Program-made: the position numbers and the translations under genes
Shown here: in pieces, positions 1,004 to 55,047 of the stretch
How the letters are laid out: every line of letters starts with the position of its first letter
Numbering within the stretch: the first letter of the stretch is position 1
DNA from: Amoebophrya sp. A120
Taxonomy: Eukaryota > Protista > Dinoflagellata
Length of the DNA stretch: 61,048 nt
Direction of reading: 5' to 3'
NCBI GenBank assembly: GCA_905178155.1
Contig: CAJINV010000003.1
Location: forward strand, 5,484,728-5,545,775
The notes under the pieces: generated by a model
The model's input: the letters and a program-made list of their open reading frames with translations, nothing else
What the model was told of the DNA's origin: nothing
Database searches by the model: none

Positions 1004-4000
1004 TATCAAGTGTAAAAATGTCTGGGTCTGGAAGAGTGCATGTTTGTCATGCTTGTCTGGCATGACTCTCAAATCTGTCATGCACGTTACTCAAGAGCGC
1101 CACTTTTCTGTCATGCAGCAACGCAGTTTGTCATGCAGAATAGGCAACACCTAGAAGCTCAGAAACTTGTCATGCTGAGCCAGCACTTGTGGTCTCCTCA
1201 TGATACGCCACCCAGCAGCACAAGTTTCCAGACCCACACATTTTTGCACTTGATATCAGGGCCGTAATCTCGCCGCTGTCCTCAAACAAGCGCGCGAGGA
1301 GGTTGTGCCCCGTCTTCCCGAGACTGCGTACCCGGCGGTAGGCGTTTTTGAACCCGCGCATTGCGGCGTCCGTGGTCACAGCGTGCACGAGACGTGGATC
1401 ATTGGTGTCTTTCACACCCGCAAGCCCCGCGTCCCCGAGCGTTATCGTAAGGAAGAATCCCTCACCGCATATCGAAAAGGCACGTCTCAGGAGATTTGCA
1501 TTGCTGACTTGTGACCACAAATCGTCTCTGTCTTGCAAGAACGCAACCTCACAGGTTGCCGCACTCTGCAGGCGGTTTGTAATGCTGTTGGCCCTACAGC
1601 CTAGACGTTTGCCATGCTTAGCGCCTAGCCCAAAACTTCCCTACTCCGGGTTGATAAAGGCCTGCTGTCCTCTCCAGCAAGACAAATCTGATTTGTGTAC
1701 GCAAATCCAGCATCAGAAACTTCGTTTTGATATGGGGAGGGGGGATTTTTCCTTTTGATAAGCGTTGTTACGGTTTCGGGGGATCTCCACCCAGCGAGGC
1801 TCCCACGGATGACCACTTCGAACGTGCCCGTGGCGGTGTAGTTTCTTTCCACGTACAGAACCTGGAAGGGCGACGCGCTTCCCGTTGTAGATGGTTGGTC
1901 CGGCCCGGGATGGACGATGTTTACCAACTGCCCGGAGTCCGACTTTATGCCCTGCAAAGATGTTGGATATCTCTATCTGAGCCTGGGTCTGGAAACAAAC
2001 TTTTTTGCATGCAGCTCTCGGTGTAAGAACTATTACTATTCATCATATATTCTAAACAGCGAAGGAAATAAGCTGGTCACTCGTGGTCACAACTCAGCGA
2101 AGTGACTTAAATTTCCAAGGCGCGACGGACATTCATCCGAGGACTCGGAAGGCCCCACAAAAACGGGCGACGCTGGAGCATCCACGTCTATCTGAGACCT
2201 CGTTGGCCATACAGAGTGGGAGCCTGCATAGCAAACATCTGCACTCTTTCTCTTCCAGGAGAGGGAGACCGCGCCCTAGTATCGAACATAGAACTTTGCA
2301 ATGCATAAAGCTGCCGTCGCCCCAGTACACCGTGAACGCGTGTGATTCAGCGCCGTCGAGCGGAAGCTTTACCGATGCGGGAGCGCTCGCGATCTCGATT
2401 TGCACCCGGAACGGATCGTCGTCCGGGGTCAGCAAATCAATGCCCCGTCCGACGGTGGCGTTGTGCTGCGCGTCATTGAAGTGCTCTTGCATCTCCGCGC
2501 TGCCGCATTGACTCAAAACGCCCGCGCCCACCGCCACGTCGGTAGCGATCACGTTTAGGGTCGTGTTGACCGCATCCACCGCGTAGTCGGACCAGAAAAA
2601 TTCGGCGAAGTTTATAACTCGCTCAGGTGTTACAATCTCAAACGTTACAATAGAGTTTGGAAATCTGTGATGCTAAAACAACCGCACCGACATTGCCATT
2701 GTCCAGCGTAGCTTTGGAGGCAAGCCTCCGCAGGTGCTGGAACGGCATAGGGTCAGAACCGCGAAAACATCGCGCGTATTTCTTCATCCCCGGGCACTCT
2801 TATATATTTCGACCATACTTTGCGCTCACAACTGTAATAGAAGCAGACAGGGAGCCCGCGACTGAATCACACAGACCCCCAGAGACCTGCTATACTATGG
2901 AAATCAGTATATGGAGACTGACAGACCCAAGCCGTATAAAGATCTCAAAGATCTACAGCAAGGGCGTTTTAGAGCTTCCACACAGACAGTGCGACTACAA
3001 GACATAGATGTGGATATTGAAGTTCTGCGGCCCTTTCTGTGGACTGGGGGGGATACCGACACAGAAGCTTTGATTTATTTTTGGTTGAAGAGAAGGCTGC
3101 AGAGCGAAAACGAGACCTGTAGTCACTAGTAGAAACAATAACACAAAGACAAACAGAAGCAGCACCATGAGATAATAACTTACCTACCCCTTACCTAAAT
3201 ACCACACGTCGATTAGTCGCACAGCCGTGTGGTCAGGTCCGCGACATCGATCATGGTAGGACCTTGTTGGAAGGTCTGACTTTTAGCGAGAAGTGGGGCA
3301 CTCCTTATCTCCAACCGACTAACCACCGCCGTAGCATGGGGACAAGGCAAGCTGCATACAAAGTCTGGCACTCCTTCCCCATTCCGCGTTTCATTCTGTC
3401 CGCTGCCATAGAATCGCGGCCCTAGCAGGGGAACAAGGCGAGCCGTGCGAGGACTGGAGCCCCCACTTGTATTCCGGCCATGATAGCATCGCAGGAACGC
3501 GTCGGAAAATCGGGGTTTTTTCCGACTTCGGAGACCGGGGATTCCCGACCGCCACTAAAGCGGCAGCCGTAGCATGGGGACAAGGCGAGCTGTGTAGAGG
3601 TTCTGCTGATCCTTCCCCTCTTCGCTTCTTCCTGCTGTCCTCGACCGTCTAATCGCGGCCATAGCATGGGAACAAGGCGAGCCGTATTCCGCAATTTCCG
3701 GCTGTCGCCGTCAGGGAGTGATTATAGACCACGTTCGGAGGCGAAAACTTCGCCTCCACAAAGAGCCGGAAAAGCCTAGGGACTGTGAACTAGGGTTAGA
3801 TGCGGACCTACCTCTTCATCTAGCACAAAGGAAGACTCACAGTCGCGGCGGGGCCTGCATAGGAGCTGCAGGTACAGAGGAGTGCACACCAGGTCGCATG
3901 ACAACGTCCAACACCAAGACAGCCCATAGTTCGCTTTTCCAGCTCTCCGCGAGGCAGCCACATCTTGTTAGTAAACGCAAACCGCGTCCCGCCCAGCGTA

Positions 4001-7000
4001 GTCCGGCCTGCGTTTGGTTCGGAGAAGGGCGGGGGTCGACTGTCCAGGCGCGCAGCCGCCTGTCTTTTGTTTTTTTTATTGTTTTATTTATGAAGAGGGC
4101 AGCAAGGGTGCGAGTTTTCGATGTTGCTACCTAGTACTATCATGAGCTCCCAAAACTACACAGGCCCGCGGTCGCTTTCTGACCGCAACTATGCGGCAAC
4201 CACGCCTTTTGTTTTCTCCATTCACATCGTTTCCAAAATGTCATGCAAGGGGCCGGAGCAGAAAACCAAAAACAGACGCAAACCAGAACAACGAGATGAA
4301 CCAGAAGACGAGGGATGGATAGCACGCATGTGCAGTTAGTTGCGCCTTCATCTCTGGGCAACTCTTGTCTTTCGCCCAGTTCAGCTTGGCCTGCGTCGTT
4401 CCCGTATTGCATCTCGGTTTCTGGAGCCCGTGGGCGTTTCGCGGTGCCGGCGAAGGGCCTTGCTCCTGCCCCGGTACGTTAAGTGCAAAAGAGGACGCAG
4501 GCGATCCATCTTAGTACGACTTGCTGTCGCTCATCGGGATCGCTCGACGACGACGTTACTCACAACGACGCCCTCGTGCCGAGCGAACACTGGAGACCGG
4601 TCCACTTCGCTATTCCAGGCGCGCAACTGGCTCCCGGGGTACCATAGTCGAGCCCTCCTGCGGCGGTGCTTCGACCGCGTTGTTTGCGGCACGCTTTTGC
4701 CGACTCGCGGCCGAGAGAAATAAGGGCGTCTTCAAGAGAAAACACAAAAGCACCCGGTGAGAATGTATATCTATACCCGCCTGGGGCAGCAGAGTGTGAC
4801 CACTGCGATGGAGATTTAGTAGCAGTTGCGGGCTGATCATAGAAACTCGAGGTCAATTTGTTGTAGCGCATCTGTGAAAATATCGTCGTCGTGGTCGTCC
4901 TTGACCGCCTTGGATTCAGAGGCCAGTTCTCCTTGCCCACTGTGCGCGCCCTGGTTGCCACGCGGCCGGGTTGCAGCGTAGTGCACCCTCGTCCAGTGGA
5001 CTAGTTCGATCACTGGGTAATCCGGGCTGTTTGCGTCGTCAGAGGCTGGAGCCCCGATGGGCACTGGCACGGGGTCCTTCGGGTGGGAGGTGGTTAGATG
5101 TATCTTGATCAGGTACTCCTCCGCGAGCGCGGTCAAAGTGAAATGGTCGCCCCAGGTGCCTTCCTGTGCCATTTCCAACAGGTATTCCTGCCACTCGTGA
5201 TCCGAGCAGCCTAGCTGAGCCTGATAATGTGCCCGGTTTACCTGGAGGCGATTGACAGCCTTGGCCCGCAGCTCCTGGTGACGGAGCTCGGACCCCGCGA
5301 ACAACATCTGGCTGAGGGCTCGGAACTGACAGTTTCCGTCCCCTTTGGTTGGCAATCGCCCGAGGTTTCTGGAGTGAAGTCGCGCGTCTATCCGCTCGTC
5401 ATTCTCCTGTTGCTCGTGGAGGGCGCGGAGGGATTCTGCGACTGCTTGGACCTCCCATTTGTCCTGCCCTTCTCTTATATCGCTGCCCCGCTGTGATTGC
5501 TGACGCCCTGATGCCGGCCACTTCGCGTTCTCCTGCCTGTGATGCAAGAATGCATGATCTAGCCAATTCTCATAGGATTGCGCATGACAGGTTCCGGAGC
5601 GGGAGCATCAAACCCCACTACAATCTGGCGAAATTTGTATTGCAGAAAGTGGAACGCTCTGCGAGTCTGTCATGCTCATCATGCAAGACAAGTCTCAGAT
5701 TCTATTGTAACGTTTGAGATTGTAACGTTTGAGCAAGTCATAAAGTTCGGCGTCGCGCACGTGGCGTTGAGAAACATCTCCTTCAGGTTGCCGATCTTAT
5801 GAGACTACACAACTCCCCCTCCCCCTCATTTGTAATGCAAAACTCCAAATTATCCACCCTTTGCCCCTTGGCACTTTTTGCATGACAAGTTCTGCAACCT
5901 CAAACAGCACTACAATCCCGGGTGAATTTGTCATGCAAAACCTGCATTCTTGCCGACGCTTGTATTGCTGTTTGTGCCAGACAAATGAGGGGGAAGGGGA
6001 GTTGTGCACTGTCATAGACCTTGCGCACATTCCAGAAGGAAACCACCGGGCTAGCCTTCACCGCGTTCGCAAACATCCGCCGCATGCTGCGAACGTTCTT
6101 GGTTTGCCAGCTGGTCACGTTCGGTTTCGCGAGTGTTGCCGCCTCGAACATCGAGGCCAAGCTGGTCGCCTGGCGAACGTCCCAGTCGTGCACGACGGGA
6201 TTTGCGGTGGCCGCGTCCTTGAAGAGGGCCGTAAAGGTTTTTCCACTGCCGGTGTCCCACGTATCCACCACCGGGTCAAAGGCCTGGGCATTGGCGAAGG
6301 CGTAGCTGAAATCGGTCACCTGGGACACGTCCCACTTCGCCACGTTGAAGTGAGCCAGCGGGGTGTCTTGGAAAATACTCCGCAGACTCTTCACCTTTCC
6401 CACCTGCCAATCGTTGAGGGCCGTAGTCGCGTAGTTAGCGGCGAGGCCGGCGCTCGCCGAGGTTTCCAGTGCGTCCAGCCCGGAAAAGGTGTAGGACAAG
6501 TCCGTCACTTCGGCGACTTTCGAGGCCCAATTTCCCAGCCCAGGCAGGCGCACCAGCTTGTTCACATTCTGAAACATGCGGGTCATGCTCGTCACCTTCG
6601 AGGTGTCGTACGAAGACACGTCGAGTTCGGTCAGGCTCTGGCAGCAGTCTTCGAACATGGACTGCGTGCTATCCTGAGTAAAAACGTACCCACGTAATGC
6701 AGATTTGCAAAGACAGGAAGACTTGTAATGCGCATCCCCATGAGAGCCATTTCCAGTCGTGCTTTGGAATTTGTGATGCTGTGAACAGAGTGAGCAGATG
6801 AATCTGTGATGCGGCTGCACTTGCTAACCAGCACCACACTGCGGAGCGCAATTTGTCATGCGTGACTCCCTAAACTCCTAGGTTTGTGTTGCAAAATCCC
6901 CATCCTGACTCTGGTGTGGGGACGTTTTTACTCAGGATACGTGCTGGTTGCGGAGGCCCAAAAGTTGCCTAGCAACTGCGCCGTCTGTGGCACCTCCGGC

Positions 7001-10000
7001 ATCATCGAGGACGCCTCCTGGAACAGAAACGGGAAAAGCGATCCGCCGCTGCTGCCGACCGCGCGCAAAGTGCGGAAACTGCGTTTCCACATCCGCGTCC
7101 ATTCTACCGCGGTCGTCGTCCCCGAAGTACTAGATGTTGCCGAGCTCAATATCCTTAGGTCCTTCCAGCCAACAATATTGCCGCGTACAACAACGGAATA
7201 CGTGCCCGTGGCTGCATACGTGTGATTGAGAGCCCCTCGGGACAGATCGGACGCGCCGTCGTCCGTAAAGCAGTCCGAGCAGCGCACGTAAGAAGCAAAA
7301 TCCCCCTTGGACGCCGTCGTTCCATCGCCCCAATGTACGGTAAACCGGTTCGCCGTTTCGTCCTCGTCGATTTGCAGGCGCACACTGAGCTGAGACGCGT
7401 CGGTGAGCTCGATATCCACGCGGAAGGGGGAGTCACCGGGGCAGTTGGGGTCGCTGCCGTCGGTGGTCATGCGCCACAAATCATCACTGCTGTCCGACCA
7501 CCGCGCGCAGCTGCTTTTCACTCCCGTGTCATCGAGCCAGCCCAAGCTCGCTGAGGCGTCTTGCAGGCCCGCCCATCTCGCGATGTTTGGAGTCGCGCAG
7601 GGTGCGCCTTTGAAGAGTCTGGTCATGTCGAGTTCTCCAGCGGCGCTCGAGTTCACCGGCCAAAAGGTCACGCACGGGTTGGCCCGTTGAGCCCCACTAA
7701 AGGCCTCCCGCATGTCGGTCACCTTATCAACTGTAAAAATGTCTGGGTCTGGAAGAATTCATGTTTGTCATGCTTGTCTGGCATGACTCTTAAATCTGTC
7801 ATGCACGTTACCCAAGATCTGCGTTTTTCTGTGATGCAGAAGCGCAGTTTGTCATGCAGAATAGGCAACACCTAGGAGCTCAGAAACTTGTCATGCTGAG
7901 CCAGCATTTGTAGCCTCATCATGAGAGGCTACCCAGCATCACAAGTTCCCAGACCCAGACATTTTTACATTTGATACACCTTGCCAACCTGCCACAGCCG
8001 GACGTCGGGGTCCGCCTTAGCGACGTCTCCGAACATACTCCGGATCACGCGCGCACTGCTCATGTCCCAAGCGGCTACCTTGAGATGGGAAGAGGTGCTC
8101 TCTCGAAACATCGCCGCAAAGTGCCTGCCTTTCTCGGTGTTCCAGGAAGACGTGTCCAGATTCGGATACACGGCACCGGCGGCACGGTCGAACATGCGCG
8201 AGAAGTCCGTATCAAATGCAAATTTGTCTGGGTCTGGAAGTTGATTCTAAACTTGTCATGCTGTTTTTGGACTCTGAAAAAATTTGTATTGCATGACCAG
8301 CAAGAGGGATACAATCTGTGCTACACGGACAGGGCATTTCTCAGGCGGAAGGCGCATCAAGAAGCCCTCTAAAAGTAAGTCTCGTCTGCGAAGCTAGGTC
8401 ATGCATTACAGGCATCATGGGTCATGAGAAATATGCATGAGAAATCTTGCATTCTAATTCTTCCAGACCCAGACATTTTTGCAATACATAGTCCGTCACT
8501 TGAGACACATTCCAGGAGCTCACGTCCGGATTGATAGCGGCTGAGTCCCCGAACATGTCCTGCACCTCTTCCGCGTGGCGGAGGTCCCAGCTCGCCAAGG
8601 TCGCCGCGATCTTCGAGCCAGTTCTAGCAAACATGCCCTGAAAATGCTTCCCGCGCGCCACGGGCCATGCTTCGATGGAATTGCTACCCGTGCTAGCGAT
8701 CTCCAGTGCCTGACCACCCTGGAACATCGCCCGAAAGTCTGTCACCTGCGACACATCCCAATCCTTGATCCCTGGCACAGTATCGACGACCGGCAACTCT
8801 GCAAAAGCATACGACACGTCCGTCACCTTTGACAGGTCCCAGGTCTGCACACTCGCCACGGTCTGCAGCTTGGCCGCCCTGCGGAAGAGAGCGCGCACAC
8901 TCCGCACCTTCGACCAGTGGCGGAGGAACACTTCGTTGTCTTCGCTGGTGAGCTGCGTGACCTCCGAGCTGTGCTCGTACAAATGGGCAAAAAGGTTGTG
9001 GCCGGTCTTGCCGAGGCTCCGGACCCGGCGGTAGGAGTTTTTGAAGTTTGCCACCTCCCCGTCGGTCGTCGTTACATACGGGAGCCGGGCGTCGTCGGTG
9101 TCCCGGACGCCCTCCAGCCCAACGTCACCCAGGGTTGTCACGGTTTCCGCCGACACCCACCCTCCGAGGCTGCCGCGGATGACAATCTCGTAGGTGCCCG
9201 TCTGTGTGTACGTTTTGTTTGCGGTGAGCACTTCGTGGTAGGATGTGCCGTTCGCCGCCAGGAGGCCGCTGACGCCGAGGCTGGCCGGGTAGACCATTTT
9301 GGAGAACTGTCCGGAGTCGGCGTTGGTGCTGCTGTCCCCCCAGAAGATCGTGAACGCGTGGCCCCCTCCCGTGGCCGCGGCCAGGGGCAGACGTACATTC
9401 AACGGCGCGGTGACCACTTCGATTTGCAGTCGGAAGGGGTCGTCGTCTTCGCCGGCAAGCAAATCCAGCCCCCGACCGTATTCCGAATCCTGCACGGCGT
9501 CGTTAAACTGACCCTGCATTTCGGTCGTGCCGCAGTGGGTGAGCATTCCGGCGAAAACGCCCACATCGGTGGTGGTCAGCCCCAGACTGGGATTCTCCGC
9601 ATCCACGGCGTAGTCGGACCAGTATCAAATGCAAACATGTCTGGGTCTGGAAGAATGCAAGTTTCTCATGCTTGTCTGGCATGACAGACTCTCAAACAGA
9701 TCTGTGTTGCGTCAGCACGAAGAGGCTGCTCTCTTGCATGTCATTGTTGTTGTTAGACGGCCCCCCTGTGGTCGTCCTCACGGCGTCATCATCATCTTGG
9801 CCCTCGGCTGTTTTGGACAGATTTTGGTTGTGCCCAGCAAGATGCCGGATGTCATGCAAAATAAACGCAGTTTGTCATGAGGAATACGCAACACCTAGCA
9901 GCCCAAAAAGTTGTCATGCTTGGCTGCGTATTGCATTTGCAGTGCGAAAAATATCATTCATTTTTAGCATTTACACGCAGACATATAATTTGCAGTCCAT

Positions 10001-43000: not shown

Positions 43001-46000
43001 CCACTCCTCGCTCAAGAGGGAAAACTGCTGTCCGAGGTCATCCTCCAGTTTGATACTCGACAGGCAGACGTCGTTGGAAGCTGTGGTGGCATATGAAACG
43101 CCTGCAAGATACACGATGCCGCGCTGTAAGAGAAGGGGATTCGCAAAGTCCTTCCGCAGAGTCGTGCCCGGGTTAGGAAGATCGAAATCGAGTGTGTGCA
43201 CTGCGAAGTTGGTCGCGTCTTCTCCCGCTCGAAGGAGCATCTTCACTGGGACGTCTCCTCCGCTGTCGGAGCTGTACTCCGTGCTGCACGATTGCACCTC
43301 GACGGTGGCTAGCTGCGCGACCGAGGCCGCCGCCGCCACATTGACAGGAGGTAAGAATGTAGTTCGCATGTGGAACGTGACCGCGTCCTTGTAACACCCC
43401 ATGGCAACTTCACCATCGGCAAGAGGATTGGCCGGAGACGAGTCGACCGATACTGCAAGATTAGCTGAGCACGGATTGCCAAACCACAGCTGCATGCCGG
43501 CAATCACCACCTCGTAGTCCCTGGGTTTTTCCGCGATCCGCAGCCCCTGGAGACACATACCGTTGTCCGTGTTATAGTTCGTCAAGGCAATGGACCTTAT
43601 GCCGGCTCTCGGGATCTGCCAACTACCGAACTCCACATCGACCCACTCGTCTGATGCCGCAGGCACCGTCGACATGGTCTGGGTGACTTCCTCGCCAGTC
43701 GTGGACTTCAGCGTGATGTCTAAGGACCCGGCGCCCGAGCTTGTACTGTGGCGACACGATTGTATCTGTACACGGAGCTGATTGACCGGCGCCTGCTGCT
43801 GCGCGCTAAGAATCAAAACGGGCAGCGGCCACCGTGCGTGCGTGGATTTGAAGCAGTTCGCCCCTCTGCTTGTGCAGTCATTCCCAAACCACCACTCCTC
43901 GCTTAGCAGGATAAACTGCTGTCCGAGGTCATCTTCCAGTTTGATACTTCGCAGGCAGACGTCGTCGGAAGCTGTGGTGACATATGAAACGCCTGCAAGA
44001 TACGTGATACCCCGCTGTAAAGGAACGGGATTCGCGAAGTCCTTCCGCAGAGTCAGGCCAGGGTTAGGAAGATCGAAATCGAGTGTGTGCACTGCGAAGT
44101 TGGTGTCGTCTTCTCCTGCTCGAAGGAGTATCTTCACGGGAACGTCTCCTCCGCTGTCGGAACTGTACCCCGCGCTGCACGATTGCACCTCGACGGTGGA
44201 CACAGAAATGACATTACTCGGCTGATTTTTTACACTCGTTGCAATGTCGATATAGTCAGCCTTGAAGGAGAAAGCGTCCTCGAGGGCCAAGGCAGTCACA
44301 TCCTGCGTCATTGGATACGGGGAGGCCACCACGCCTTCACCTGTCCGGTCGCGCCAGTCGTGCCCGGCAAACGCAGTCCCGAACCCGCAGGCCTGACCGT
44401 CGGCGAAGCCCGTCATGTTCGAGGCAACTGCGCGCCCGGTCAGGTTCCAACGGCCCAAGCAAACAACACCGGCGGCGGAGGATCCCCGAAGAAACGCACT
44501 GAAATCACGCCCCGGCCCCTGGTGCGGAACTACCAGGGACGCGCCGAACGTTGCGAACGCGGTCGCCGTGAGGTCCAAATGTGGCACCACGCCCGCGCCG
44601 CCCATGTCCTCGAACATCCCGCCCAGCTCCGGGACGCGACTCAGGTCCCAGCGCTGCAGGTCGGGGTCTGCATGTCTGGCTTGGGCGAACAGGCTCTGCA
44701 AGGCCCCCGTGCCTTCTGCACCGGTCGTGGTCGTCCCTTCGCGCACGTACACGTGGGCTATGGAAGTGTCAGAGCCGAAATTGACGAAATCGAAAAATTT
44801 GCGACGCACAAAATCGATGTTAGTTGGAGCTTCAGTTTTCAAGTGGCGCATCGCAAATTTCGGGAGCACCCAAATCCAGTCTGTCATGCTGCTTGGGCAA
44901 AGAAGACTGCTCCTGTCATGCTACTCTGGAAGCACATTGCATACCCCAAAACAGGCTTACAGTCGGTCAAGTCTCATAATTTGCCTGCTCCCCTCCAATT
45001 CAGGCCTTCAGTGGCCTACATTTTATGCATCACAAGTTTTTCGATTTTGTCGATTTCGATTCTGACACATCCATATGGGCCCCGCAGATGGTAAGCCGAT
45101 CATCGCCAAAGCCGTAAAGCGGTGCGTTGGAGGTGCGGTCTGCTTGGGCCAGCACGTACACATATTTCACCGGTTGCTTCGCCCACAGTTTGCCCGCGTC
45201 CAGGGAGACCACCGTGCCGCCTTCGCTGCCCGGCGCGACGCGCCCGAGCTGAATGTAGTCCACGCCCGCCACCATCTGTCCGCCCGTGACCAGGGCGTAC
45301 AGCTCTCGCGCGATGGCGGCGTGGTTGCTCGATTGATCTTGGTCCACGGTGATCGGGGGATCCAACCACACGGTAGCATGGTCCAGCCGTGCCAGCACGC
45401 CCGGATCTGTATCCTCCCGGTTGAACAGGTGCAGGTGGGACAAATGCCGCCTCACCCCGCCCCGCCACGGGGTGGGTTGCACCCGCCACCAGTTGAGACC
45501 CGTCTCCGGGGTGCTCGAGGTAGCGCCGGTCCCCGCTGTGAAAGCGCAGGTAGCGCCCCAATCCGAGTTGCCACTCACGTAGCTGAGCGGGTTTGTCGCC
45601 ACTTTGTCCAAGTAACTGCTGCTGCTGGTATCAATACTGGACTGCTGGGCCATCAGGTCTGCCGCGGCCACCCGTCTTGTGGTATCCGTCAACCCGCCCA
45701 TACCGTTCTCATGAGGAAAACTCCCTCCTCCCCAAGAACCGCATATTGACGATGCACGAAAGCCGAAAAAAATTATGCTGCTTGTGCCTATTGGTGCGCG
45801 CACTATCTAGCACACTTGGGCTGGCAAAAATCTGTGCGCGCGTTTTAGTCGACAGTCGAAACTACATATTGCACTATCATGCTAGTAAAGGGCTGGACTT
45901 CTTCTAGAAAGAACCTCAGCAGATCTAAAAGTCGCCCCCTATCCCTTGCATGCCGCAAGAAGACAAAGACGACTTCGGTCTGGGCCTCATACCAATCCCC

Positions 46001-49000
46001 TTTCGCGTATTTTGGCGAGGAGTCATCTATGAAAGCGCCAGAACCGAAATTCACTACAGAGTTGCAATAATTTGCGACACATGATAGAATCGCTACCAGT
46101 TAGCAGCCCAATCTCTGAGCGGCGCGTGACAAACTTCTGCAGCACCCAAATCCGGTTTGCCATGCTATAGCCGTTGAGGCAAAAATGACATCTGTTATCA
46201 TGCTCCTTCGGTAGGTGTATCTCGAGCCCTAAAGAGGCCTAGTACAAGCGGCCTCACTTGCCTTCTCTGCAAGACAGGCACTTTTTGCCTCGCATATTGT
46301 ATAATTATGCCCATGCAAGTTTTTCAACTTTGTGTTTGTCAACTTCGGTCCTGACGCTTCCATAGCATTTTTCCTCTCAATACGTGAGGCTCGGGAAAGC
46401 CCACACACTCGTGTCCGCGTTCAAAAACCGAGAGCCCTGGAACATACGGGAAAGCTATCGCGGAGGAGATCCCCCCTCCCCAGATTGAAGCGGCACGCTT
46501 CTGAAACTTCGTCACACTGATTCGCGGCTACCGATCGTGCCTGTCTTGCAGGGGGGCAAATCCAGAAAGTCCGCCGCATTGTGCAGGCGGTTTGTGATGC
46601 TTGCTGTTACTAGAGCCACAAGGCGTCGCGCGTCCGTCATGCTACCTCAGCGCCTACCTCAGAACATCCCTGCCCAGGCTTTGCGTCTGCCTGCAGTCCC
46701 TCACACACTGCAAGACGGGGCTGATTCGTGTACGCAAATTCCGCATCACTGATTTCGATTCAAATACTTACGAGAAGGGGGGATTTTTCTTCTTGATAAA
46801 AGCGTCAAGGCATTCGGCGCCTCAACGTGTCGAAGATTGTCTAACCCCAGCCAATTCCCGTAGCTTCCTGTGTAAAAAAGTGCCCACCCTGTGAATATAT
46901 ACGAGTACAGCTTCTTGCCGCGCTAAACAGACCGCGGCGCTGCCCTTATTTCTGTCTCTTCCTCCAGGTCCAGCATCGACGACGAATTACGCGTAGCATG
47001 CTTGGCCTTTCCATGTATCTATGTGCAAACTGTGGCCGCGGTAAGTGGCTGTCACGCAAGCAAGCTCTGTCATGCCGACACCGAAATGCGAGCATCCTCA
47101 ACATCTACCGGCCACCGTGCCAACTTTCCAACAGGAAATCATGCAGCACAGCATCGCACTCACTTACTTGTGCCCAAACTTGCCATGCCCAGGCCCATCT
47201 CGCAGCAGAGTTCCTGAATTTATGTGCGCTGGAGGGGCGTGGCTCGCGTACTTACTAGTACCTTCTTCTCGGGGCAACATGAAGGTTATTTGGGGCTGCT
47301 CCACAGGGTGGGGACGTTTTCGCACAGGATACTTCGTTAAATCTGAACAAACTTCCCACATCCGTGACGGTGGACGCCATCAGCCGCCGCACGGACGGCA
47401 GCTTGACCCCCGGTTCGAAGCCCTCAAACAGAGACGGCGCGGTAGCCAAGGAGTCCAGAGACCACGCCGAGCTTGCGGAGGAGCCAAGGTCTCCGAAGTT
47501 ACCCTGAAGCTCTCCCTTGTAGGAACTCATCGCCGGTCGCTATTCTGAATAAAAACGTCCCCCCCCAGAGTTATCATGCAAATCTGCATGCCAAAAAAGT
47601 TCCTCGTGCGGAGCTCCGTGGGAACCACTTTCATTCTAGTCGTGTTTTGGAATTTTTCATGCTACAATTATCAGCGTCATGCGCTAGATCTGTGACGCTT
47701 CGGAAGTAGCTCAACAGGGTTACACTCTACAGGGACAAGCTTGTCATGCGAAACAACCAAAGCTGGCTGGTTTGTCGTAGCAGATTTCCCATCTTGACTA
47801 TGGTGCGAGGACATTTTTACTCAGGATAGTCGCAGCGTGGAGGTCATCGTCCGACTCGTCACTCTGATCGGGGTATTCAACAAAGACTGCAGCTGCTGCA
47901 GACCGTCGTGAGCGTAGGCGTAGTCGGCGCTCTTTCCACCTGTGTCCGTCGGCCGCCCCGCTGTAGTGGTCTTCGCACTCCCGGGTATATCCAGTGCCGT
48001 CCGAACTAGAGAGAGGTCGGACCTTGCTCCGAGAAGTTGTTGGTGGTCCATCGCAGGGAAAAAGTGTTTACAGCGACACGACACTTGTCGCAACTTTAGC
48101 AACACAGACTTGCCCTGCATTGCAGAGATGAAAACTTGCCATGCAAAGATCCTACGGGACGAAAACACGTATGAAACGAGGCTCGCCATGCCTTTCCAGC
48201 ATGAGAGAGGTTGTCTGTCTTGCACGTTCTGCAACACAATGTGTAACTGTAAAACGCTTTTTTCGTTGCATATGGTCCATCCCTTGTTCATTCGCCGTTC
48301 TTCCCCGAGCCTCATACTCCCCGGACAGGTGGTTTGCAAAGAAAACTTGCTCGTAGGCAGAGCCGTCGCTGGCAAACACGAGCGCGCGGTTTTCTCTGGG
48401 CATTGGCATCAGTGCTGAGGAGGTGGTGCTCGCCGGACTCTCCTGGAACAACGCTGGCCTTGCGAAGTAGTCTTGTGAAGCCACGGCACCAGCAAGGTGG
48501 CTCAGCGGGTACGGAACACCGCTGGCGGCACTGATCGTATGCTCACCTCGTCCCCTCGCGTCTGGTCCTTGGATGCCGAGGTCGGACGGCAAAAATGTTC
48601 GGCTGCGTCGGGTACACTCTCCGAAAATTTTCACTTCGTTCAGCTGCAGCCTCCGGCCGATCGTGGTTTTCCACTGGCGGTCTGGTAACTCAACAAACAC
48701 GTAGCGCCCGACCGCAACTCCCGGCGGGCAGAACGCCGTGAGTTTCCACATAGGCTCGGCCGCGTCGGCAGGAAGTCCCGCAAAACCAACGCGCTCGAAG
48801 CCGTACCGCATCGTCCGCAGGACCCGAGCCGGGGATATGCCGTACCTTTCCACGCCTGAAGCTACCTCATTCGCCCCGGAGGGGTCCAGGCTAAAGGATC
48901 CGCACCATACCACCCGTCCGCGAGGAGCGAAGCCATCTCCCTCGTCCTGTCCATCTTCGTCGTGCCTCGCCGTGGACTGCGCCTGACCCTGCTGCGACTC

Positions 49001-52000
49001 CAGATCCACCTCGCCAGCGGCACCAACAGAAAGTGGCTGTCCTCCCTCGTCCCCCAAGACAACGTCATCGATATTGTAGTGCGTCATCGGGTTGTAGTTG
49101 TGACAACCTGAGCTGCCGAATGCACAACTGGAGTAGTATCAAATGCAAATGCGTGTCTGGGTCTGGAAGAATGCACGTTTGTCATGCTTGTCATCTCACA
49201 TCATGAGTCTTCAACTTGTCAGTAACGCATGAGCAGGAAAAACGTGTCTCGCATGTATGCAAAAATGCAGTTTGATGCCATGCGGAAAGCAAAACACATT
49301 GGAGTCCAAAACGTTGTGGAGGTGCGTGGCTGCGTATTGCAGTCGTGCGTCCAGAATTCACAAACTAGCATCACACGCTTTCATCCCACACCAAGACATA
49401 TTTGCAAAAATGCATAAGTTGGAAACCCCAACGATGACACGCGAATTCGGCGTCCAGGAGTAGGCCTGCTCGGTCGTGCACTCTGACAGACCATCCATGA
49501 AGAGTAGGCACGGCTTTGTGGTGAATATTTCAACGCGCGTGATCCGCCTCGGCCGATCATAGCGCCCTGCCACATTCATTTGGTACCATGCAAGGCGGAT
49601 GAACCATTTGGGCACGTACGCATCCGTTCGAGTCGTACTGCACTCCGTCGTGTGGTCGCCGTCGCTGCAGAGCCCCGCGTGGTTCATCATGTGGTCCGTA
49701 CTCAACTCCGCGGGTCCAAGCAAGCGAATCTCGTTTGACAAAACGCGACTTCTGGTGGTCGTGCGCAGTATCCTGAGTAAAAACGTACCCACACCAGAGT
49801 TGTAATGCAGATTTGCAAAGACAGGAAGACTTGTAATGCGCATCCGCATGAGAGCCATTTCCAATCGTGTTTTGGAATTTGTGATGCTGTGAACAGGATG
49901 AGCAGATGAATCTGTGATGCGGCTGCACTTGCTAACCTGCACTACACTGCAGAGTGCAGCTTGTCATGCGTGACTCACAAAACTCCTAGGCTTGTGTTGC
50001 AAAATCCCCATCCTGACTCTGGTGTGGGTACGTTTTTACTCAGGATACGCAGCAGTTTTGCGGTAGCCGACGAGAGAGAGCCCCTGCTGCCATCCTCTGC
50101 CACGACCGATGCGGGCGGCGAGGAGGTTGTTCTTGGGGTACTACCTCCAGACCCGCCTGCTGGTGCAGATGAAGACCGGCCGGAGGTAGAAGCGACCTGA
50201 TTGGCTGGAACAAGGGGTAGCACTTCCTGCTCCTCGAAAATCAGATCGGGCAACGCGTTGGAGTACGGCTGCGAGACCGTGCGATGCTGCACAGAATCCT
50301 GTGTGCGGTAGAAATACGTATTCGCAGCGAGGCGGTCGGCCCCCTCGACGTCGCTGTCGCTGAGGCGGTCTGCCTGCAGGGGGTCCTCACAAATGGGATG
50401 GTCGGGGGCAAGATCAGGATTGGTGAACCCATCGCTGATCCCCTCCGCGCGAGCCTTCGCATACAACACCCCTCCAGAGTCGAGGGGCGTTAGCCCGGCC
50501 GCACAACTGCGAAACCTCTCGCACGCAACGCCCTCCGCTACGCGGAAGAAGTTGCACGCCAAGTCCTCTGCGCACTCCGCCGCACATGCGCTGTAAGTGT
50601 GATACTCTGGCAGGGTGTCAACGTCGGACTCGATCTTGTAGGATTCGACTCGGTCGTTCTCTGGAGCACAGTTTGCATTGGTGGCCATGCGAAGGAAAGA
50701 AACTCCTACTCCCAACACGTCGTCACTGGTGAAAGAACGAGTCTTCGATGAGCGCGTCGACCGCCCTAGCGGCACACAAGCCTCCAACACCGTTCCCGGG
50801 TCCGTAGTAATGCACCAGATTATCAAATGCAAAAATGTCTGGGTCTGGAAGAATGCAAGACTTGTCATGCATGTTTATCATGACCCATGATGCCTGTAAT
50901 GCTTGACCTAGCATCGCAGACTTTTAGAGCGCTTCCTGAACCTTATACACCTTCCGCATGAGAAATGCCGTGTCCGTGTAGCAACAACGAACTGTCCCCC
51001 TTTTGCTGGTCACGCAATAGAATTTTTTTTGGATTCCAAAAACAGAATGACAAGTTGCAATCTTCCCGACCCAGACATTTATTTTTGCAGTTGATACAGA
51101 TGCTCGTGTACCCATTCGGGTTGCGGCAGAAGTTGTGGTCTCCGAGTCCTCCGTCGCCATCAAGATCAGTGCCGTGCGTGTGCGGAGACTGCGCCGTCCA
51201 CTTCTGGCACAGCCTTCCCGTGATGGTCCGGGTCTGGCAGCCACGATAGGTCGCGCCGCTGTCCAGGGTGGACATGCTTTCATCGCAAAAAGTGACGTCG
51301 GTTCGCGGCAACCGCAAGTGCGGTGCGGTTTGCAACTGCAACTGCAATTTCCGCGCGCGATCGTAGTGGTCCACCTTACGCAGGTAGGGCATCCCTAGTG
51401 GATTCGTGTCCACATCCTCGAAGTCGAAGGGAAGCCCGAAGACTTGAATCTCGGCCACGGCGAGACGGCGAAAGCTATCGGCGCTCCTTTTCTTGGCATT
51501 CACCCACAGGTACCTCCCCTTCTTTCGGTAGTACTTACAATTGGCAACGAGCCGACGCGGTGTCGATCGGCGGTCCCGCATACTCACCAGAGAGGGACTC
51601 GTTTGCACGGACGGAGCCTGGTCGAGCAAAGACCGGCGATTCAGCTCGGAGAGGTCCGCTCCGTACGAGTGGCCAAAGTACTCCGTTGGAGAGTACGACA
51701 CATCGTTTCCGCATCTGCCCCGCGCGTCGCTTGCCACCAGCAGGTCGAAGCACCCCCTTCCGGTGTCATCATCTGTTCCTGAGTAGCTGGAACCAGTGTC
51801 CCCGCACACAGGAATCTTGGAAACGCCGGTTTGGAGGGGTACGGTGTGTGTGGGGTCTACCCAATCTTTCTGCGCGCAAGAGACCTCGCCAAAATCCCGG
51901 TCCACGAACGAGAGAGTGCTCTCGCCTTGTGTGTCAACAGCATCGGAGAATGCGAGGGTGTCGCGGCCACGGTGGCTAAAGAGGTCGAAACCGCAGTCCG

Positions 52001-52221
52001 GCTGCCCAAATACGTAGGCGTACGAGACGGTACGCAGTCCGCCCAGGTCGACCTGTATCCACGGACTCAGTTCCGGTGCCGACACTGCTAAGCCCGCGTA
52101 CCCGTGGAGCAGACCGTCGATCGCGTTGCGTGCCCGAAACCGATCCAGGGCCGTGGTTCCGGCCTTCGTATGGCGCGTGATGTCTGTGGGGTCGTGCCTC
52201 TCGTCCAGCATATTTGCCTTC
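1..52221 (-). CDS. Giant multi-exon surface/adhesin-like protein gene (about 9,000 aa in window, partial at both ends): BspA/DUF285 repeats, PKD-like, kringle, PAN/apple, PLAT-like and F5/8/fucolectin-like domains
   Basis: Minus-strand ORF pieces join in frame when each TIR element plus one 5-bp TSD is removed, e.g. EITAL|TSEDND, PETVTTL|GDA, DWSLVTD|MSRFLQ, CLTTDP|NVRFEYCDP, APNALT|LSRMFQ. The repeat W.vs.vt.m..MF..a..a.P recurs throughout. Not every junction was translated. Confidence 0.85.
1004..1255. mobile_element. Introner family A
   Basis: TIR TATCAAGTGYAAAAATGTSTGGGTCTGGAA; TSD tcagg/tcagg. Confidence 0.95.
1443..1760. mobile_element. Introner family B
   Basis: TIR TATC..AAGGAA.AATCCC...CC.CATATC; TSD agcgt/agcgt. 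Confidence 0.95.
1946..2307. mobile_element. Degenerate introner (A-like)
   Basis: Short TIR tatgc..tgcaaag; TSD diverged (gactt/aagct); removal restores WGDG..DSG. Confidence 0.75.
3322..3690. repeat. Imperfect duplication (offset about 238 bp) with four tagcaWgggRacaaggcRagc motifs
   Basis: Motif at about 3332, 3423, 3570 and 3662. Confidence 0.7.
4837..5536 (-). CDS. OTU-family cysteine protease (deubiquitinase-like) domain, 5'-truncated
   Basis: GDGNCQFRALS...WGDHFTLTALA...HY catalytic motifs. Confidence 0.85.
5798..6016. mobile_element. Introner family D
   Basis: TIR TATGA.....CACAACTCCCC.TCCCCCTCATTTG; TSD gatct/gacct. Confidence 0.93.
6017..6669 (-). CDS. Exon: BspA/DUF285 repeats
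   Basis: ORF 5900-6820 core: WDVSQVTDFSYAF, WDTGSGKTF, WDVRQATSLASMF. Confidence 0.85.
6670..6939. mobile_element. Introner family E
   Basis: TIR TATCCTGAGTAAAAACGT.CCCAC; TSD cgtgc/cgtgc. Confidence 0.95.
6940..7724 (-). CDS. Exon: repeat cap (CATPN) and PKD-like module
   Basis: ORF 6928-7722: FTVHWGDG...NHTYAATGTYSVVVRG. Confidence 0.8.
7725..7976. mobile_element. Introner family A
   Basis: TSD cacct/cacct; same length as and similar to 1004-1255. Confidence 0.95.
8210..8490. mobile_element. Introner family A
   Basis: TSD gtccg/gtccg. Confidence 0.93.
8491..9622 (-). CDS. Exon: PKD-like module and BspA repeats
   Basis: ORF 8422-9606: FTIFWGD...KTYTQTGTYEIVIRG, then WDLSKVTD and WDVSQVTD. 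Confidence 0.85.
9623..10001. mobile_element. Introner family A with nested 104-bp insert (9745-9848)
   Basis: TSD accag/accag; right TIR decayed; insert flanked by atgtcat. Confidence 0.88.
10651..10921. mobile_element. Introner family A
   Basis: TSD gtcgt/gtcgt. Confidence 0.93.
11305..11593. mobile_element. Old introner with short TIR
   Basis: tatc..cag...ctgcaggata ends; TSD lost; removal restores YTY..TGEY. Confidence 0.7.
11594..12623 (-). CDS. Exon: BspA repeats (copy 1 of tandem duplication)
   Basis: ORF 11536-12645 core. Confidence 0.85.
12624..13040. mobile_element. Introner with damaged left end
   Basis: TIR ...tacaa..gaag.cac.ccc.tacca; the empty site is visible in the paralog at 10980. 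Confidence 0.85.
13366..13654. mobile_element. Duplicate of the 11305-11593 introner
   Basis: Same sequence at +2061. Confidence 0.7.
13655..14587 (-). CDS. Exon: BspA repeats (copy 2 of tandem duplication)
   Basis: ORF 13597-14577, nearly identical to 11536-12516. Confidence 0.85.
14588..14878. mobile_element. Introner family F
   Basis: TIR TATTACA.TGAAAAATG; TSD caatg/caagg; empty site caaag in the paralog at about 12522. Confidence 0.93.
14942..15216. mobile_element. Introner family D
   Basis: TSD ggtca/ggtca. Confidence 0.9.
15857..17650. repeat. Composite satellite: A/T-tract and CG-run blocks alternating with ~14-bp (cccatcgcccaact)n; 490-bp higher-order unit
   Basis: 15857-16346 nearly identical to 16347-16836, followed by diverged copies. 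Confidence 0.95.
18460..18660. repeat. Short ctaaat / atgctaaat minisatellite
   Basis: More than 10 copies of ctaaat. Confidence 0.85.
19281..22721 (-). CDS. Helitron RepHel: HUH endonuclease and PIF1-like SF1 helicase
   Basis: HUH motif EPQPTQGRPHRHSLTW; catalytic Tyr motif IRYVITYPIK; Walker A PAGAGK; AATGQAA..I.GKTMH; VVIDEVAM; GGK.VFFFCDTYQL; STIHSFQGRT. Confidence 0.92.
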   Translation of the reverse strand: MVWSWVDAGGVCGVTCRLGPAHMRNGAEIFFPTKRENDLDAGRMHIKREELTKLWESLLGVEFPLLFVNGLSLPQGVSLESFLRQYFARPEMTAPVLYDLHQVLLLRYALNKRQRLVLAYQAHYAASHDGALPKRLPANIPGSLEEVNAQRCKAFAIMRKLGAADLMTTATQGDDMVEMRAEAERRPWKSCPVLDEPCPSVRAFQAKMRKHVEEVESLYGETAAITWGDEPQPTQGRPHRHSLTWFADPLLTATAFDEFIERSRDWIPEECGRWRETADRVFYHHHTDACRVPGRVQCKKLCPAALVAETYLDEKGFLQIETKEGDEMCVGIDKKTFCRFLAHTHANGVGGANKIRYVITYPIKKVKPLGRDSDQGSWQMFEQEGGFDEIKTLHSAQVLPASEAAADLYGVSRFGVHLPRGRLVTVIVDRKRIEDAPLFIGNATAADAVNNWLDRPEKYAAWSLERFTLNTRSTGARRFVEVYAQWHEHLHEEEFTAPNRLGVVTELTQLQAFRCYLVANRVAIAGASLALQQTDKMLANLDPARNVFHLRADHHDDTYLLWLCGLHLVNRADVQEYFDDPEASMARWNYPAHMKRFAFRNFLDEVHQLRPQSGLLTLFVKYFLNFDTEARRAAWDWLVAEHGIPLDVIAKRLERDGVDRHIIRMTLPEAGAHLQQFGSELEQRRHYIKCYHARNREKRQEHARELADLLHGANPNALELMPGQKAALYQIVDEDPGDEGAADLMTCNEPAGAGKAKIIRALELIAYERKLIIVILAATGQAATIINGKTMHDGCGLTIDLEDSAAWSEEQRALVGAADWVVIDEVAMANAEWCTRCAENIGREALHWEQLQNLASADEPAKLWGGKRVFFFCDTYQLASVVRVFRSMDSFLGPTSRPFAHFVQNLARFRRVRIDNGGCSPRFFEEEWSRELDRVRTGETKEIDLTTFGRVGAEDVEYSYQWLDERIRGAPCGIEAVNGVEIVVGCHRERRRVLAVRARALRAKGATCRTYCPRLLNLQNPLMEGFDEEESTKSEKLELFLGERIALTGPLRLLGKTYATNSRGTVRGFGRTFVDVRFDVDGCEEPVPLNSTWQEDCDGDPASRWLVLAIGVRPCVVSTIHSFQGRTVLPHISRRAPGRGKLLNIF
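22576..23289 (-). pseudogene. Disrupted N-terminal part of RepHel (two short ORFs)
   Basis: CKWCA...E...CTLCKNG Cys motif resembling Helitron N-termini; separated from the main ORF by a stop/frameshift. Confidence 0.55.
23876..24174. mobile_element. Introner family E (inverted relative to 6670)
   Basis: TSD ggtgc/ggtgc. Confidence 0.95.
24274..24534. mobile_element. Introner family A
   Basis: TSD gcggt/gcgtt. Confidence 0.92.
24610..24936. mobile_element. Introner family B (inverted relative to 1443)
   Basis: TSD cgtac/cgtac. Confidence 0.93.
24946..25277. mobile_element. Introner family A
   Basis: TSD ctccc/ctccc; only 9 bp from the previous element. Confidence 0.88.
25560..25817. mobile_element. 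Introner family C
   Basis: TSD gaggt/gaggt; long TIR. Confidence 0.95.
25901..26232. mobile_element. Introner family F
   Basis: TIR TATTACAGT.AAAAATGCCCC; TSD tcgtc/tcgtc. Confidence 0.95.
26233..28807 (-). CDS. Large exon: BspA repeats and a PKD-like module with a lower-GC inserted domain
   Basis: ORF 25983-28910 core with many WDVSSG.DFS.MF repeats. Confidence 0.9.
28808..29144. mobile_element. Introner family B
   Basis: TSD aacga/gacga. Confidence 0.92.
29145..30402 (-). CDS. Exon: Cys-rich segment and BspA repeats
   Basis: ORF 29079-30395: CRKCNDGFLLD...CEK; GLHTWDVSGV. Confidence 0.75.
30403..30839. mobile_element. Introner family E with nested 126-bp insert (30533-30658)
   Basis: TSD ccgtc/ccgtc; insert flanked by gtgatgc. 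Confidence 0.9.
30840..32184 (-). CDS. Exon: PAN/apple-like domain
   Basis: TPEECRRRCEAHTRCTSYGH....CDLK. Confidence 0.75.
32185..32331. mobile_element. Introner family G (shortest, 147 bp)
   Basis: TIR TATCCAG.AAAAAACACCCATCCCCA; TSD tctac/tccac; (cat)n inside. Confidence 0.93.
32756..33014. mobile_element. Introner family A (inverted relative to 10651), in frame and stop-free
   Basis: TSD gaacg/gaaca. Confidence 0.93.
34129..34353. mobile_element. Introner family D
   Basis: TSD acagc/acagc. Confidence 0.93.
34354..35539 (-). CDS. Exon: kringle C-terminal half and two PLAT-like domains
   Basis: GDHNYCRNP...IWCYTTD...ERC; NNFCFQRLRV...MWLENPC. Confidence 0.8.
35540..35752. mobile_element. 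Introner family H, splitting a kringle
   Basis: TIR TAT.CAAGAAAAAAAC.CCATC.CAATCAC; TSD gcgtt/gcgtt. Confidence 0.93.
36060..36384. mobile_element. Introner family B
   Basis: Near-perfect TIR TATCAAAAGGAAAAATCCCCCCTCC; TSD cgcgc/cgcgc. Confidence 0.95.
36729..37016. mobile_element. Introner family E
   Basis: TSD aagtc/aagtc. Confidence 0.93.
37126..37401. mobile_element. Introner family A
   Basis: TSD cgtcc/cgtca. Confidence 0.93.
37402..39132 (-). CDS. Exon: Cys-rich repeats and unknown domain
   Basis: ORF 37364-39130 with two C..C...GACC.W units. Confidence 0.75.
39133..39330. mobile_element. Introner family I
   Basis: Ends tatgacttgcaa...ttgcactggata; TSD caagg/caagg. Confidence 0.85.
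39571..39936. mobile_element. Introner family D (inverted relative to 5798) with nested 111-bp insert (39729-39839)
   Basis: TSD tcctg/tcctg; insert flanked by gagatgaacttgtcMtgca. Confidence 0.92.
39981..40216. mobile_element. Introner family A
   Basis: TSD gggtc/gggtc. Confidence 0.93.
40217..41573 (-). CDS. Exon: F5/8-like domain and three kringle domains
   Basis: PWLLLDLEHVSQVYKVRI; three copies of YVGC.TRT..G..CQKW..Q.PH...GDHN.(C)R. Confidence 0.9.
41574..41892. mobile_element. Introner family A containing a (GGTT)n microsatellite at about 41616-41682
   Basis: TSD catgt/cacgt. Confidence 0.93.
42099..42310. mobile_element. Introner family J
   Basis: TIR TATCG...GAAAAAA.TGTTTCACTGTAA; TSD actgt/actgt. 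Confidence 0.93.
42311..44758 (-). CDS. Exon: duplicated pair of PLAT-like domains
   Basis: ORF 42194-44887; a unit of about 300 aa repeated (VEVQSCS..YSSDSGGDVPVK...GIRSIA.T.YN.DNG.CL). PLAT assignment is by pattern only. Confidence 0.75.
44759..45075. mobile_element. Introner family K
   Basis: TIR of about 50 bp TATGGA.GTGTCAGA..CGAAAT.GAC.AAATCGAAAAA; TSD tgggc/tgggc. Confidence 0.95.
45707..46382. mobile_element. Decayed B-type introner whose right TIR is interrupted by a K element
   Basis: Ends tctcatgaggaaaa...tttcctctcaata; boundary uncertain by a few nt. Confidence 0.75.
46028..46364. mobile_element. Introner family K nested in the previous element
   Basis: TIR tatg.aagcg.cag.accgaa.tt.ac; TSD tcatc/gcatt. 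Confidence 0.85.
46456..46798. mobile_element. Introner family B
   Basis: TSD aaagc/aaagc. Confidence 0.92.
46864..47331. mobile_element. Introner, E-like TIR with a divergent interior
   Basis: TIR tcctgtg..aaaa.gt.cccaccctgtg; TSD cgtag/cttcg; join FRFNE|GNWLG. Confidence 0.8.
47541..47828. mobile_element. Introner family E
   Basis: TSD gtcgc/gtcgc. Confidence 0.93.
48049..48272. mobile_element. Introner, J-like
   Basis: TSD tggtc/tggtc. Confidence 0.85.
49137..49416. mobile_element. Introner family A
   Basis: TSD agtag/agttg. Confidence 0.9.
49769..50047. mobile_element. Introner family E, very similar to 6670-6939
   Basis: Perfect long TIR; TSD cgcag/cgcag. Confidence 0.95.
50821..51096. 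mobile_element. Introner family A (inverted relative to 8210), splitting a kringle
   Basis: TSD cagat/cagat. Confidence 0.95.
51097..52221 (-). CDS. Exon: fucolectin/F5/8-like domain and kringle
   Basis: ARNAIDG...SPWIQVDLG...LAVAEIQVFG; YRGCQTRTITGRLCQKW...GDHNFCRNP. Confidence 0.85.
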
Positions 52222-52290
52222 TATCAAATGTAAAAATGTCTGGGTCTGGAAGAATGCAACTTGTGATGCTGCATTTGGATTCCAAAAAAA
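52222..52290. mobile_element. Left end of a family A introner; remainder displaced beyond the window by nested elements
   Basis: TATCAAATGTAAAAATGTCTGGGTCTGGAAG preceded by ccttc; no matching right TIR in the window. Confidence 0.85.
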
Positions 52291-55029: not shown

Positions 55030-55047
55030 TTCATTCTGACTCACACT

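Follow-up and report, generated by a model that had tools for sequence, protein, structure and literature searches.

Introners of the dinoflagellate Amoebophrya sp. A120 have been described as carrying inverted repeats, with the motif TAT, seven less-conserved nucleotides (nt) and at least three A, between direct repeats of 3–5 nt, and more than 60% of the 66,565 introns supported by RNA sequencing (RNA-seq) in this organism are non-canonical (Farhat et al., 2021, PMC7789003). Most A120 introner families have been filed as DNA transposons with terminal inverted repeats (TIRs) (Gozashti et al., 2025, PMC12130899). The stretch of A120 DNA analysed here, the window (61,048 nt of contig CAJINV010000003.1), holds a giant gene interrupted by such elements. 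The intron system, the TAT motif and the repeat of 5 base pairs (bp) are already in print, and the window gene is a striking example of the published system, not a discovery. The result added here is a fixed register, in which the intron would start one base before TAT and end four bases after ATA (-1/+4); it is the most useful new inference and comes from few junctions. The full explanation, to which we assign a probability of about 0.5, is that the TIR introners are removed from RNA at this fixed register, probably by a divergent U2-type spliceosome.

Inverted-end scans with flanking repeats, followed by a frame check of each inter-element segment, defined the element set; coordinates are positions in the window, and the gene and its elements are read on the minus strand, which is the transcript strand. 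Between 1004 and 51096 there are 45 complete top-level TIR elements, and a 46th is half visible, with its TAT end at 52222. Lengths are 147–468 bp in 42 of the 45, the other three (676, 3130 and 8481 bp) containing nested insertions. Read along the transcript, 43 begin with TAT, 39 end with ATA and 38 do both. The elements at 11305–11593 and 13366–13654 go back to a single insertion that was duplicated as part of a block with 99.5% identity, leaving 44 independent complete insertions. A first-pass annotation, made from the letters of the sequence, had counted 46 interruptions, nearly all starting TAT and ending ATA; the number stands if the half-visible element is included. Reading 45710–45991 and 46028–46364 as two introns with an exon between them was rejected, since a stop there shows an outer element with a nested insert.

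The flanking 5-mers agree at 5/5 positions in 30 elements, 4/5 in nine, 3/5 in one, 2/5 in one, 1/5 in three and 0/5 in one. Among repeat lengths from 2 to 10 only 5 rises above background, with a mean identity of 0.86 versus 0.20–0.30. A strict pattern (TAT..ATA, 100–500 bp, perfect 5-mer, TIR of at least 7/12) occurs 25 times in the window, whereas 200 shuffles gave 0.25 on average and never more than two. The transposon origin proposed at first pass is supported. For about six degenerate elements the ends were placed manually in the light of the reading frame, which was not the case for the remaining 39. One left end was placed at 46864 by a longer TIR comparison, and this value underlies the final flank, end and codon counts; an earlier value (46885) underlies the repeat-length, GT-AG, clustering, folding, G.U, repeat-spacing and shuffle counts.

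The motif TAT-N7-AAA is present at 33 of the 45 5' ends and at either end of 35, in agreement with the suspected link to the published Amoebophrya introners. The earlier estimate of about 11 TIR families is plausible, but BLAST clustering grouped the elements differently (13, 6, 6, 3, 2 and 2 members, the duplicated pair, an element with its own nested insert and 11 singletons). Families occur in both orientations, and one paralogous empty site, for the 14588 element, is seen near 12520. The inserts derive from transposons and, as TIR elements with a duplication of 5 bp, belong to the published A120 introner kind; as in non-autonomous TIR transposons, there are TIRs, a target-site duplication (TSD) of fixed length, no coding capacity and insertion in either orientation.

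Removing each element plus 5 nt at all 45 sites gives a single stop-free frame of 9,141 codons at all six cut positions, extending to all complete elements the observation that removal of the element and one duplication length restores the frame. The frame is also kept by element+2 or element+8 and lost by element+0, 1, 3, 4, 6 or 7. The 27 kilobases (kb) of exon sequence are stop-free, with 74% GC at third positions, so that the accumulation of stops named in advance as a refuting case is not seen. GC content is 61% in exons and 46% in elements, and every intron found in the gene is of the TIR-element kind. The gene is extreme in having introns of 8.5 and 3.1 kb with nested cargo as well as a 4-nt micro-exon, and it probably extends past the window at both ends. 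A Pfam scan of 19 segments, seven of which had no match, gave Kringle, PAN and many DUF285 domains, from which the product is likely to be a giant surface or secreted protein. At more than 9,100 residues, this protein combines Kringle and PAN with DUF285 repeats, which are more familiar in bacteria. The unique part of the protein has no relative among 1.84 billion representatives, the 108 matches being to DUF285 repeats only.

A pattern scan with one family end identified at least 152 further loci (L001–L152), 80 of them with full flanks, which share families with the window in copies up to 96% identical. The searched end lies on the 5' side in 32 cases, on the 3' side in 19 and on both in 12. 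In these listed loci 297 unique elements were called (flanks of at least 3/5), of which 160 could be oriented, the 137 unoriented ones being excluded from oriented counts; applied to window controls, the orientation method recovered the correct strand in all 32 that it oriented. The sample is dominated by one family, so that element counts are not independent. The codon position at which the duplication starts is uneven in the 160 oriented elements (35, 52, 73), possibly a calling bias, and is not so in the window (17, 16, 12). The L031 gene carries on its minus strand two GT-AG introns (about 2290–2410 and 1890–2000) alongside four TAT..ATA elements; one of the two GT-AG introns begins G-TAT-N7-AAT, resembling a decayed element.

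Exons of L031 and L052 are 100% identical to the named A120 proteins P0112 and P0229, respectively. P0112 crosses four elements and P0229 seven, with no extra residue in either, and these annotated proteins match element+5 at 11 of 11 junctions. Since frame alone cannot separate element+5 from element+2, it is these proteins that decide for element+5 in the related loci. Their gene models appear to derive from the transcript-based pipeline described in PMC7789003.

Elements with mismatched flanks allow the position of the cut to be located. The four mismatched duplications singled out at first pass (GATCT/GACCT, CAATG/CAAGG, GCGGT/GCGTT and CATGT/CACGT) are real, and the proposal that such cases could fix the cut proved workable at two junctions in the related loci. 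In L031, a Rab5-like gene, the flanks differ at position 4 and P0112 carries the Ala encoded by the upstream copy, which is also present in the A25 ortholog and in 93 of 101 scorable homologs (120 homologs). The L052 flanks are mismatched at positions 1 and 5; here the P0229 sequence MMRGG fits only cuts after positions 1–4. L031 thus sets a lower bound and L052 an upper bound, and if one register is shared only a cut after position 4 fits both. The register would be bracketed by these two annotation-based junctions together with a few weaker homology cases. The P-loop Lys of L056 is encoded only if position 3 comes from the upstream copy; stops arise in L057 if the cut lies after position 0 and in L033 if it lies after position 5, both elements having 3/5 flanks and being perhaps miscalled. 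Three weaker window cases agree with the register: repeat consensus favours the upstream copy at the 14588 junction (Leu versus Ile, 13 versus 2 of 54 repeats) and at the 5798 junction (Val versus Ile, 27 versus 0 of 54), and an invariant Trp favours it at the 12626 junction. For L030, L015 and L071, alignments from a structure database either stopped short of the residue at the junction or yielded no homolog. From these comparisons the -1/+4 register appears likely.

Two published data sets can be set beside this register. Table S4 of PMC7789003 gives nine predominant non-canonical A120 motifs, every one with T at +2, and under the -1/+4 register U would occupy +2 in 45 of 45 window elements. 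In Dataset S2 of PMC12130899, where the comparison covers 38 of 58 A120 rows, the fam160 row (splice_5 23, TE 24-361, splice_3 365, TSD 5) has exactly the -1/+4 geometry. An invariant fourth position of the TSD, suggested by window mismatches of 4, 5, 6, 0 and 4 by position (P ~0.02 for any empty position), disappeared after the end correction and was not replicated in the 160 oriented elements. No paper fixing the A120 register or catalyst was found in the literature searched, which did not extend to subscription papers, to figures or to two of the PMC12130899 supplement files.

In the proposed mechanism, a Ginger-like or other integrase-type transposase reading TAT-N7-AAA would insert the element and leave a 5-bp duplication. 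The intron would then consist of N5, the element and N1–N4. The first T of the element would supply U at +2, with A and U after it as in GUAU, and position +1 and the final two bases would be free. A divergent U2-type spliceosome would recognize the donor N-UAU, and the 3' cut would be measured from the element end instead of being read from an AG. Removal is seamless because 1 + 4 = 5, so that the duplication need not be read. The signal would be the end motif, which is symmetric, with offsets counted according to the direction of transcription; this favours an RNA process and disfavours DNA excision. That removal occurs at the RNA level is very likely. A spliceosome is the probable catalyst, and nearly all spliceosomal proteins and U2, U4, U5 and U6 are present in A120 (PMC7789003). 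The two ordinary GT-AG introns of L031 begin with GTAT and GTAC, resembling the putative N-UAU donor. It is more tentatively proposed that the A120 spliceosome ignores the first and the last two intron bases, takes the T of TAT as its +2 U and counts the 3' site four bases past the other end.

Several points weigh against this explanation. The register is drawn from related loci and from gene models, which may contain errors, and it presupposes one cut position common to all elements. Among the oriented elements 39 of 160 have mismatched flanks, few of them on judgeable residues, and most of their other non-synonymous mismatches could not be judged. The fam183 row of Dataset S2 gives another register (splice_5 26, TE 29-370, splice_3 372; PMC12130899). 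Splice sites are called variable relative to the hairpin and U1 was undetected in A120 (PMC7789003), and the Table S4 motifs may reflect aligner preferences. No annotated protein of the window gene was found among proteins of 1008–2875 residues. Under the register there is no preference for G at +1 (15/45 in the window, 49/160 in the listed loci), and no branch-point signal was found. End conservation is symmetric (5' 156 versus 3' 154 of 160), lacking an asymmetry that a spliceosome might impose; a better-conserved 5' end, considered because of TAT in 43 and ATA in 39 of the 45 window elements, was rejected (P 0.24 by score).

The main rival, which we regard as rather unlikely, is a structure-guided removal from RNA by a nuclease that cuts the paired ends at fixed distances, followed by exon ligation, as proposed for euglenids. 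A fixed register is compatible with it, as are the undetected U1 (PMC7789003), the symmetry of the ends and the activity of elements in both orientations, and euglenid introns are released as circles (PMC11282704). In predicted folds the two ends come together in 41 of 43 elements, compared with 23 of 100 exon controls, but within the stem G.U is no more frequent than A.C (43 versus 42 in the window, 82 versus 116 in the 160 oriented elements). Neither this comparison nor folding energy, which shows no strand asymmetry, supports selection on an RNA stem, leaving the earlier proposal that end pairing guides removal without backing beyond the fold itself. Of 160 elements, only 85, 92 and 67 are paired at TIR positions 4, 5 and 7, respectively, whereas TAT and AAA pair in 145–157, a profile that looks like a protein-binding motif, and U at +2 would be a coincidence under a nuclease.

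A second alternative, also part of the first-pass proposal, is that the duplication itself aligns the junction by microhomology-guided joining in addition to end pairing. Flank identity of at least 4/5 is kept in 39 of 45 window elements and in 231 of 305 elements called in the listed loci without using flanks, but this is explained by recent insertion. Six of the 45 remain in frame with flanks of 3/5 or less (ends partly set by hand), and mismatches occur at all five flank positions (16, 6, 7, 12 and 7 in the 160 oriented elements). By codon position they amount to 8.8% at third (25/285), 4.1% at first (11/268) and 4.9% at second positions (12/247), a ratio of about 2:1 as expected if one copy is exonic and the other free. 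Together, these observations indicate that the duplication is apparently not read, and guidance by it is improbable.

An intron of the form N-TAT...ATA-N (element+2), a GT-AG look-alike with free outer bases that would add one codon per insertion, is very improbable. This register was suggested by Table S4, in which eight of nine predominant motifs are NT-AN (PMC7789003); it keeps the frame and produces no stop at any of the 160 oriented junctions in the listed loci. It was rejected on the annotated proteins, which contain no extra residue at 4/4 (P0112) and 7/7 (P0229) junctions, and by repeat spacing, as it lengthens 4/4 interrupted repeat motifs whereas 50 of 54 uninterrupted ones have a 12-residue spacing. 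It would also delete the P-loop Lys in L056 (hand reading) and give a stop at the window element 1946–2307.

It is equally hard to sustain that neighbouring GT-AG sites are spliced in the ordinary way, or that the gene is dead and filled with insertions. In-frame GT..AG pairs exceed expectation up to 6 nt from the element ends (11/45 versus 5.5), but at 9–30 nt they are near chance (observed/chance 14/10.5, 14/15.8, 19/20.6, 34/28.1 and 38/37.7). The GT-AG or GC-AG borders of U2-type introns fall in any register in few elements (GT-AG in 2/45 in the window; GT/GC-AG in 11/160 in the listed loci), as the first-pass annotation had maintained in denying a common GT-AG register, and the 27 kb of open exon sequence with its third-position GC argues against a dead gene. 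Least probable of all is the DNA-level excision that had been left open, resembling that of ciliate internal eliminated sequences: symmetric ends, both orientations and transposon origin would suit it, but all informative junctions keep the upstream copy in the transcript direction, which a DNA reaction on symmetric elements would not be expected to sense, and we know of no germline/soma nuclear split in dinoflagellates. The introns were, moreover, validated by RNA-seq against genome assemblies that retain the elements (PMC7789003).

Table 1. Host gene, TIR elements and nested features of the window; flanks are the two 5-bp copies, with identity where it is below 5/5.
Position	Strand	Feature	Flanks	Basis
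1..52221	-	Host gene, 46 exons, 9,141 codons after in-silico splicing		Frame analysis, Pfam
1004..1255	-	TIR element	TCAGG/TCAGG	
1443..1760	-	TIR element	AGCGT/AGCGT	
1946..2307	-	TIR element, degenerate flanks, ends hand-set	2/5	
2613..5742	-	TIR element, enlarged by nested insert	AAGTT/AAGTT	
4840..5607	-	OTU-protease-like open frame within 2613-5742 element		PF02338, E 1e-11
5798..6016	-	TIR element	GATCT/GACCT (4/5)	
6670..6939	-	TIR element	CGTGC/CGTGC	
7725..7976	-	TIR element	CACCT/CACCT	
8210..8490	-	TIR element	GTCCG/GTCCG	
9623..10001	-	TIR element	ACCAG/ACCAG	
10651..10921	-	TIR element	GTCGT/GTCGT	
11305..11593	-	Degenerate TAT..ATA element, copy of 13366-13654	1/5	
12626..13040	-	TIR element, 3' end and flank damaged	0/5	
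13366..13654	-	Degenerate TAT..ATA element	1/5	
14588..14878	-	TIR element	CAATG/CAAGG (4/5)	
14942..15216	-	TIR element	GGTCA/GGTCA	
15324..23804	-	8.5-kb TIR element (TAC..ACA), nested Helitron-like insert	GTCCG/GTCCG	
19281..22721	-	Helitron-like Rep/PIF1 helicase open reading frame (ORF), 1146 amino acids, inside 8.5-kb element		PF14214, PF05970
23876..24174	-	TIR element	GGTGC/GGTGC	
24274..24534	-	TIR element	GCGGT/GCGTT (4/5)	
24610..24936	-	TIR element	CGTAC/CGTAC	
24937..24945	-	9-nt spacer left by elements inserted 4 nt apart; consists of two overlapping duplications, yields 4-nt micro-exon on splicing		
24946..25277	-	TIR element (TAC..ATA)	CTCCC/CTCCC	
25560..25817	-	TIR element	GAGGT/GAGGT	
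25901..26232	-	TIR element	TCGTC/TCGTC	
28808..29144	-	TIR element	AACGA/GACGA (4/5)	
30403..30839	-	TIR element (TAT..TTA)	CCGTC/CCGTC	
32185..32331	-	TIR element	TCTAC/TCCAC (4/5)	
32756..33014	-	TIR element	GAACG/GAACA (4/5)	
34129..34353	-	TIR element	ACAGC/ACAGC	
35540..35752	-	TIR element	GCGTT/GCGTT	
36060..36384	-	TIR element	CGCGC/CGCGC	
36729..37016	-	TIR element	AAGTC/AAGTC	
37126..37401	-	TIR element	CGTCC/CGTCA (4/5)	
39133..39330	-	TIR element	CAAGG/CAAGG	
39571..39936	-	TIR element	TCCTG/TCCTG	
39981..40216	-	TIR element	GGGTC/GGGTC	
41574..41892	-	TIR element	CATGT/CACGT (4/5)	
42099..42310	-	TIR element	ACTGT/ACTGT	
44759..45075	-	TIR element	TGGGC/TGGGC	
45707..46382	-	Degenerate TIR element (TAT..AGA), 3' end uncertain	1/5	
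46028..46364	.	TAT..ATA element nested in 45707-46382	3/5	
46456..46798	-	TIR element	AAAGC/AAAGC	
46864..47331	-	TIR element (TAT..AAG)	CGTAG/CTTCG (3/5)	TIR 24/30
47541..47828	-	TIR element	GTCGC/GTCGC	
48049..48272	-	TIR element (TAT..ATG)	TGGTC/TGGTC	
49137..49416	-	TIR element	AGTAG/AGTTG (4/5)	
49769..50047	-	TIR element	CGCAG/CGCAG	
50821..51096	-	TIR element	CAGAT/CAGAT	
52222..52914	-	One end of longer element, commonest family; other end not seen in window		

Within the 8.5-kb intron the Rep/PIF1 ORF is open and on the same strand as the host gene, and internal repeats lie at about 15850–17640. The OTU-protease-like insert in the 2613–5742 element is possibly Helitron cargo. A 1545-bp block is duplicated at 10980–12524 and 13041–14585 with 99.5% identity, the second copy stopping exactly where two elements lie, which suggests either a gene-conversion tract halted by the insertions or an assembly duplication. 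The region 52222–54750 contains a long version of the commonest family that runs into GC-rich sequence and a tandem array (52900–54613, units of roughly 90–100 bp). A relative of this element with a different flank is present in L022 (1498–2280), and the long element is a candidate lead to the mobilizing element. The remainder of the window (54751–61048) is a long terminal repeat retrotransposon, Copia-like by eye, with 271-bp repeats that are 98.5% identical, the right one reaching the window end.

If true, the -1/+4 register would provide a concrete splice-site definition, with an N-UAU donor and an acceptor set by distance, and would reduce tens of thousands of introns with 'no signature' to one rule. 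Any such transposon with a 5-bp duplication would be a seamless intron at any site and in any orientation, even with 8 kb of cargo, explaining harmless insertion in either orientation, and gene models with borders that slide within the duplication could be corrected. It would also offer direct tests separating a relaxed spliceosome from a new splicing machine. Since flank mismatches occur in roughly one element in three, the register should be readable genome-wide from existing data.

Compared with known systems, the window elements share with the published A120 introners the motif, inverted repeats of 8–20 nt, apparently non-canonical borders, a size near 240 nt and the multiplicity of families; the published direct repeats are of 3–5 nt, with a 5-bp example in the legend of Fig. 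S19, and flanks of at least 4/5 are found here in 39 of 45 (PMC7789003). The difference lies in the border, which is variable relative to the hairpin in that paper and which we infer to be fixed at -1/+4. The families of Gozashti et al. (PMC12130899) likewise originate from TIR DNA transposons, reach tens of introns in a gene and have splice sites 'co-opted' from the duplication, and fam38 is described as '5-bp TSD, TA/TA Termini' and filed as Ginger; registers vary by family in the automated table, and the relevant passages do not address the catalyst. The nonconventional introns of euglenids resemble the window elements in their TIR-paired ends, TSD-like junction repeats, lack of GT-AG and coexistence with ordinary introns, and differ in being defined by a CAG/CTG motif at a set distance and by a purine where the exon begins, and in their circular release (PMC11282704, PMC12501133), the end consensus in the window being TAT-N7-AAA and not CAG/CTG. 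In Fritillaria borealis the preferred dinucleotides AG-AC and AG-AT are kept, whereas here +1 and the acceptor dinucleotide are apparently free. The introns of that species are nevertheless also transposon-derived, with TIRs and TSDs, and are removed by an altered U2 spliceosome (PMC11282704), providing a precedent for the favoured mechanism.

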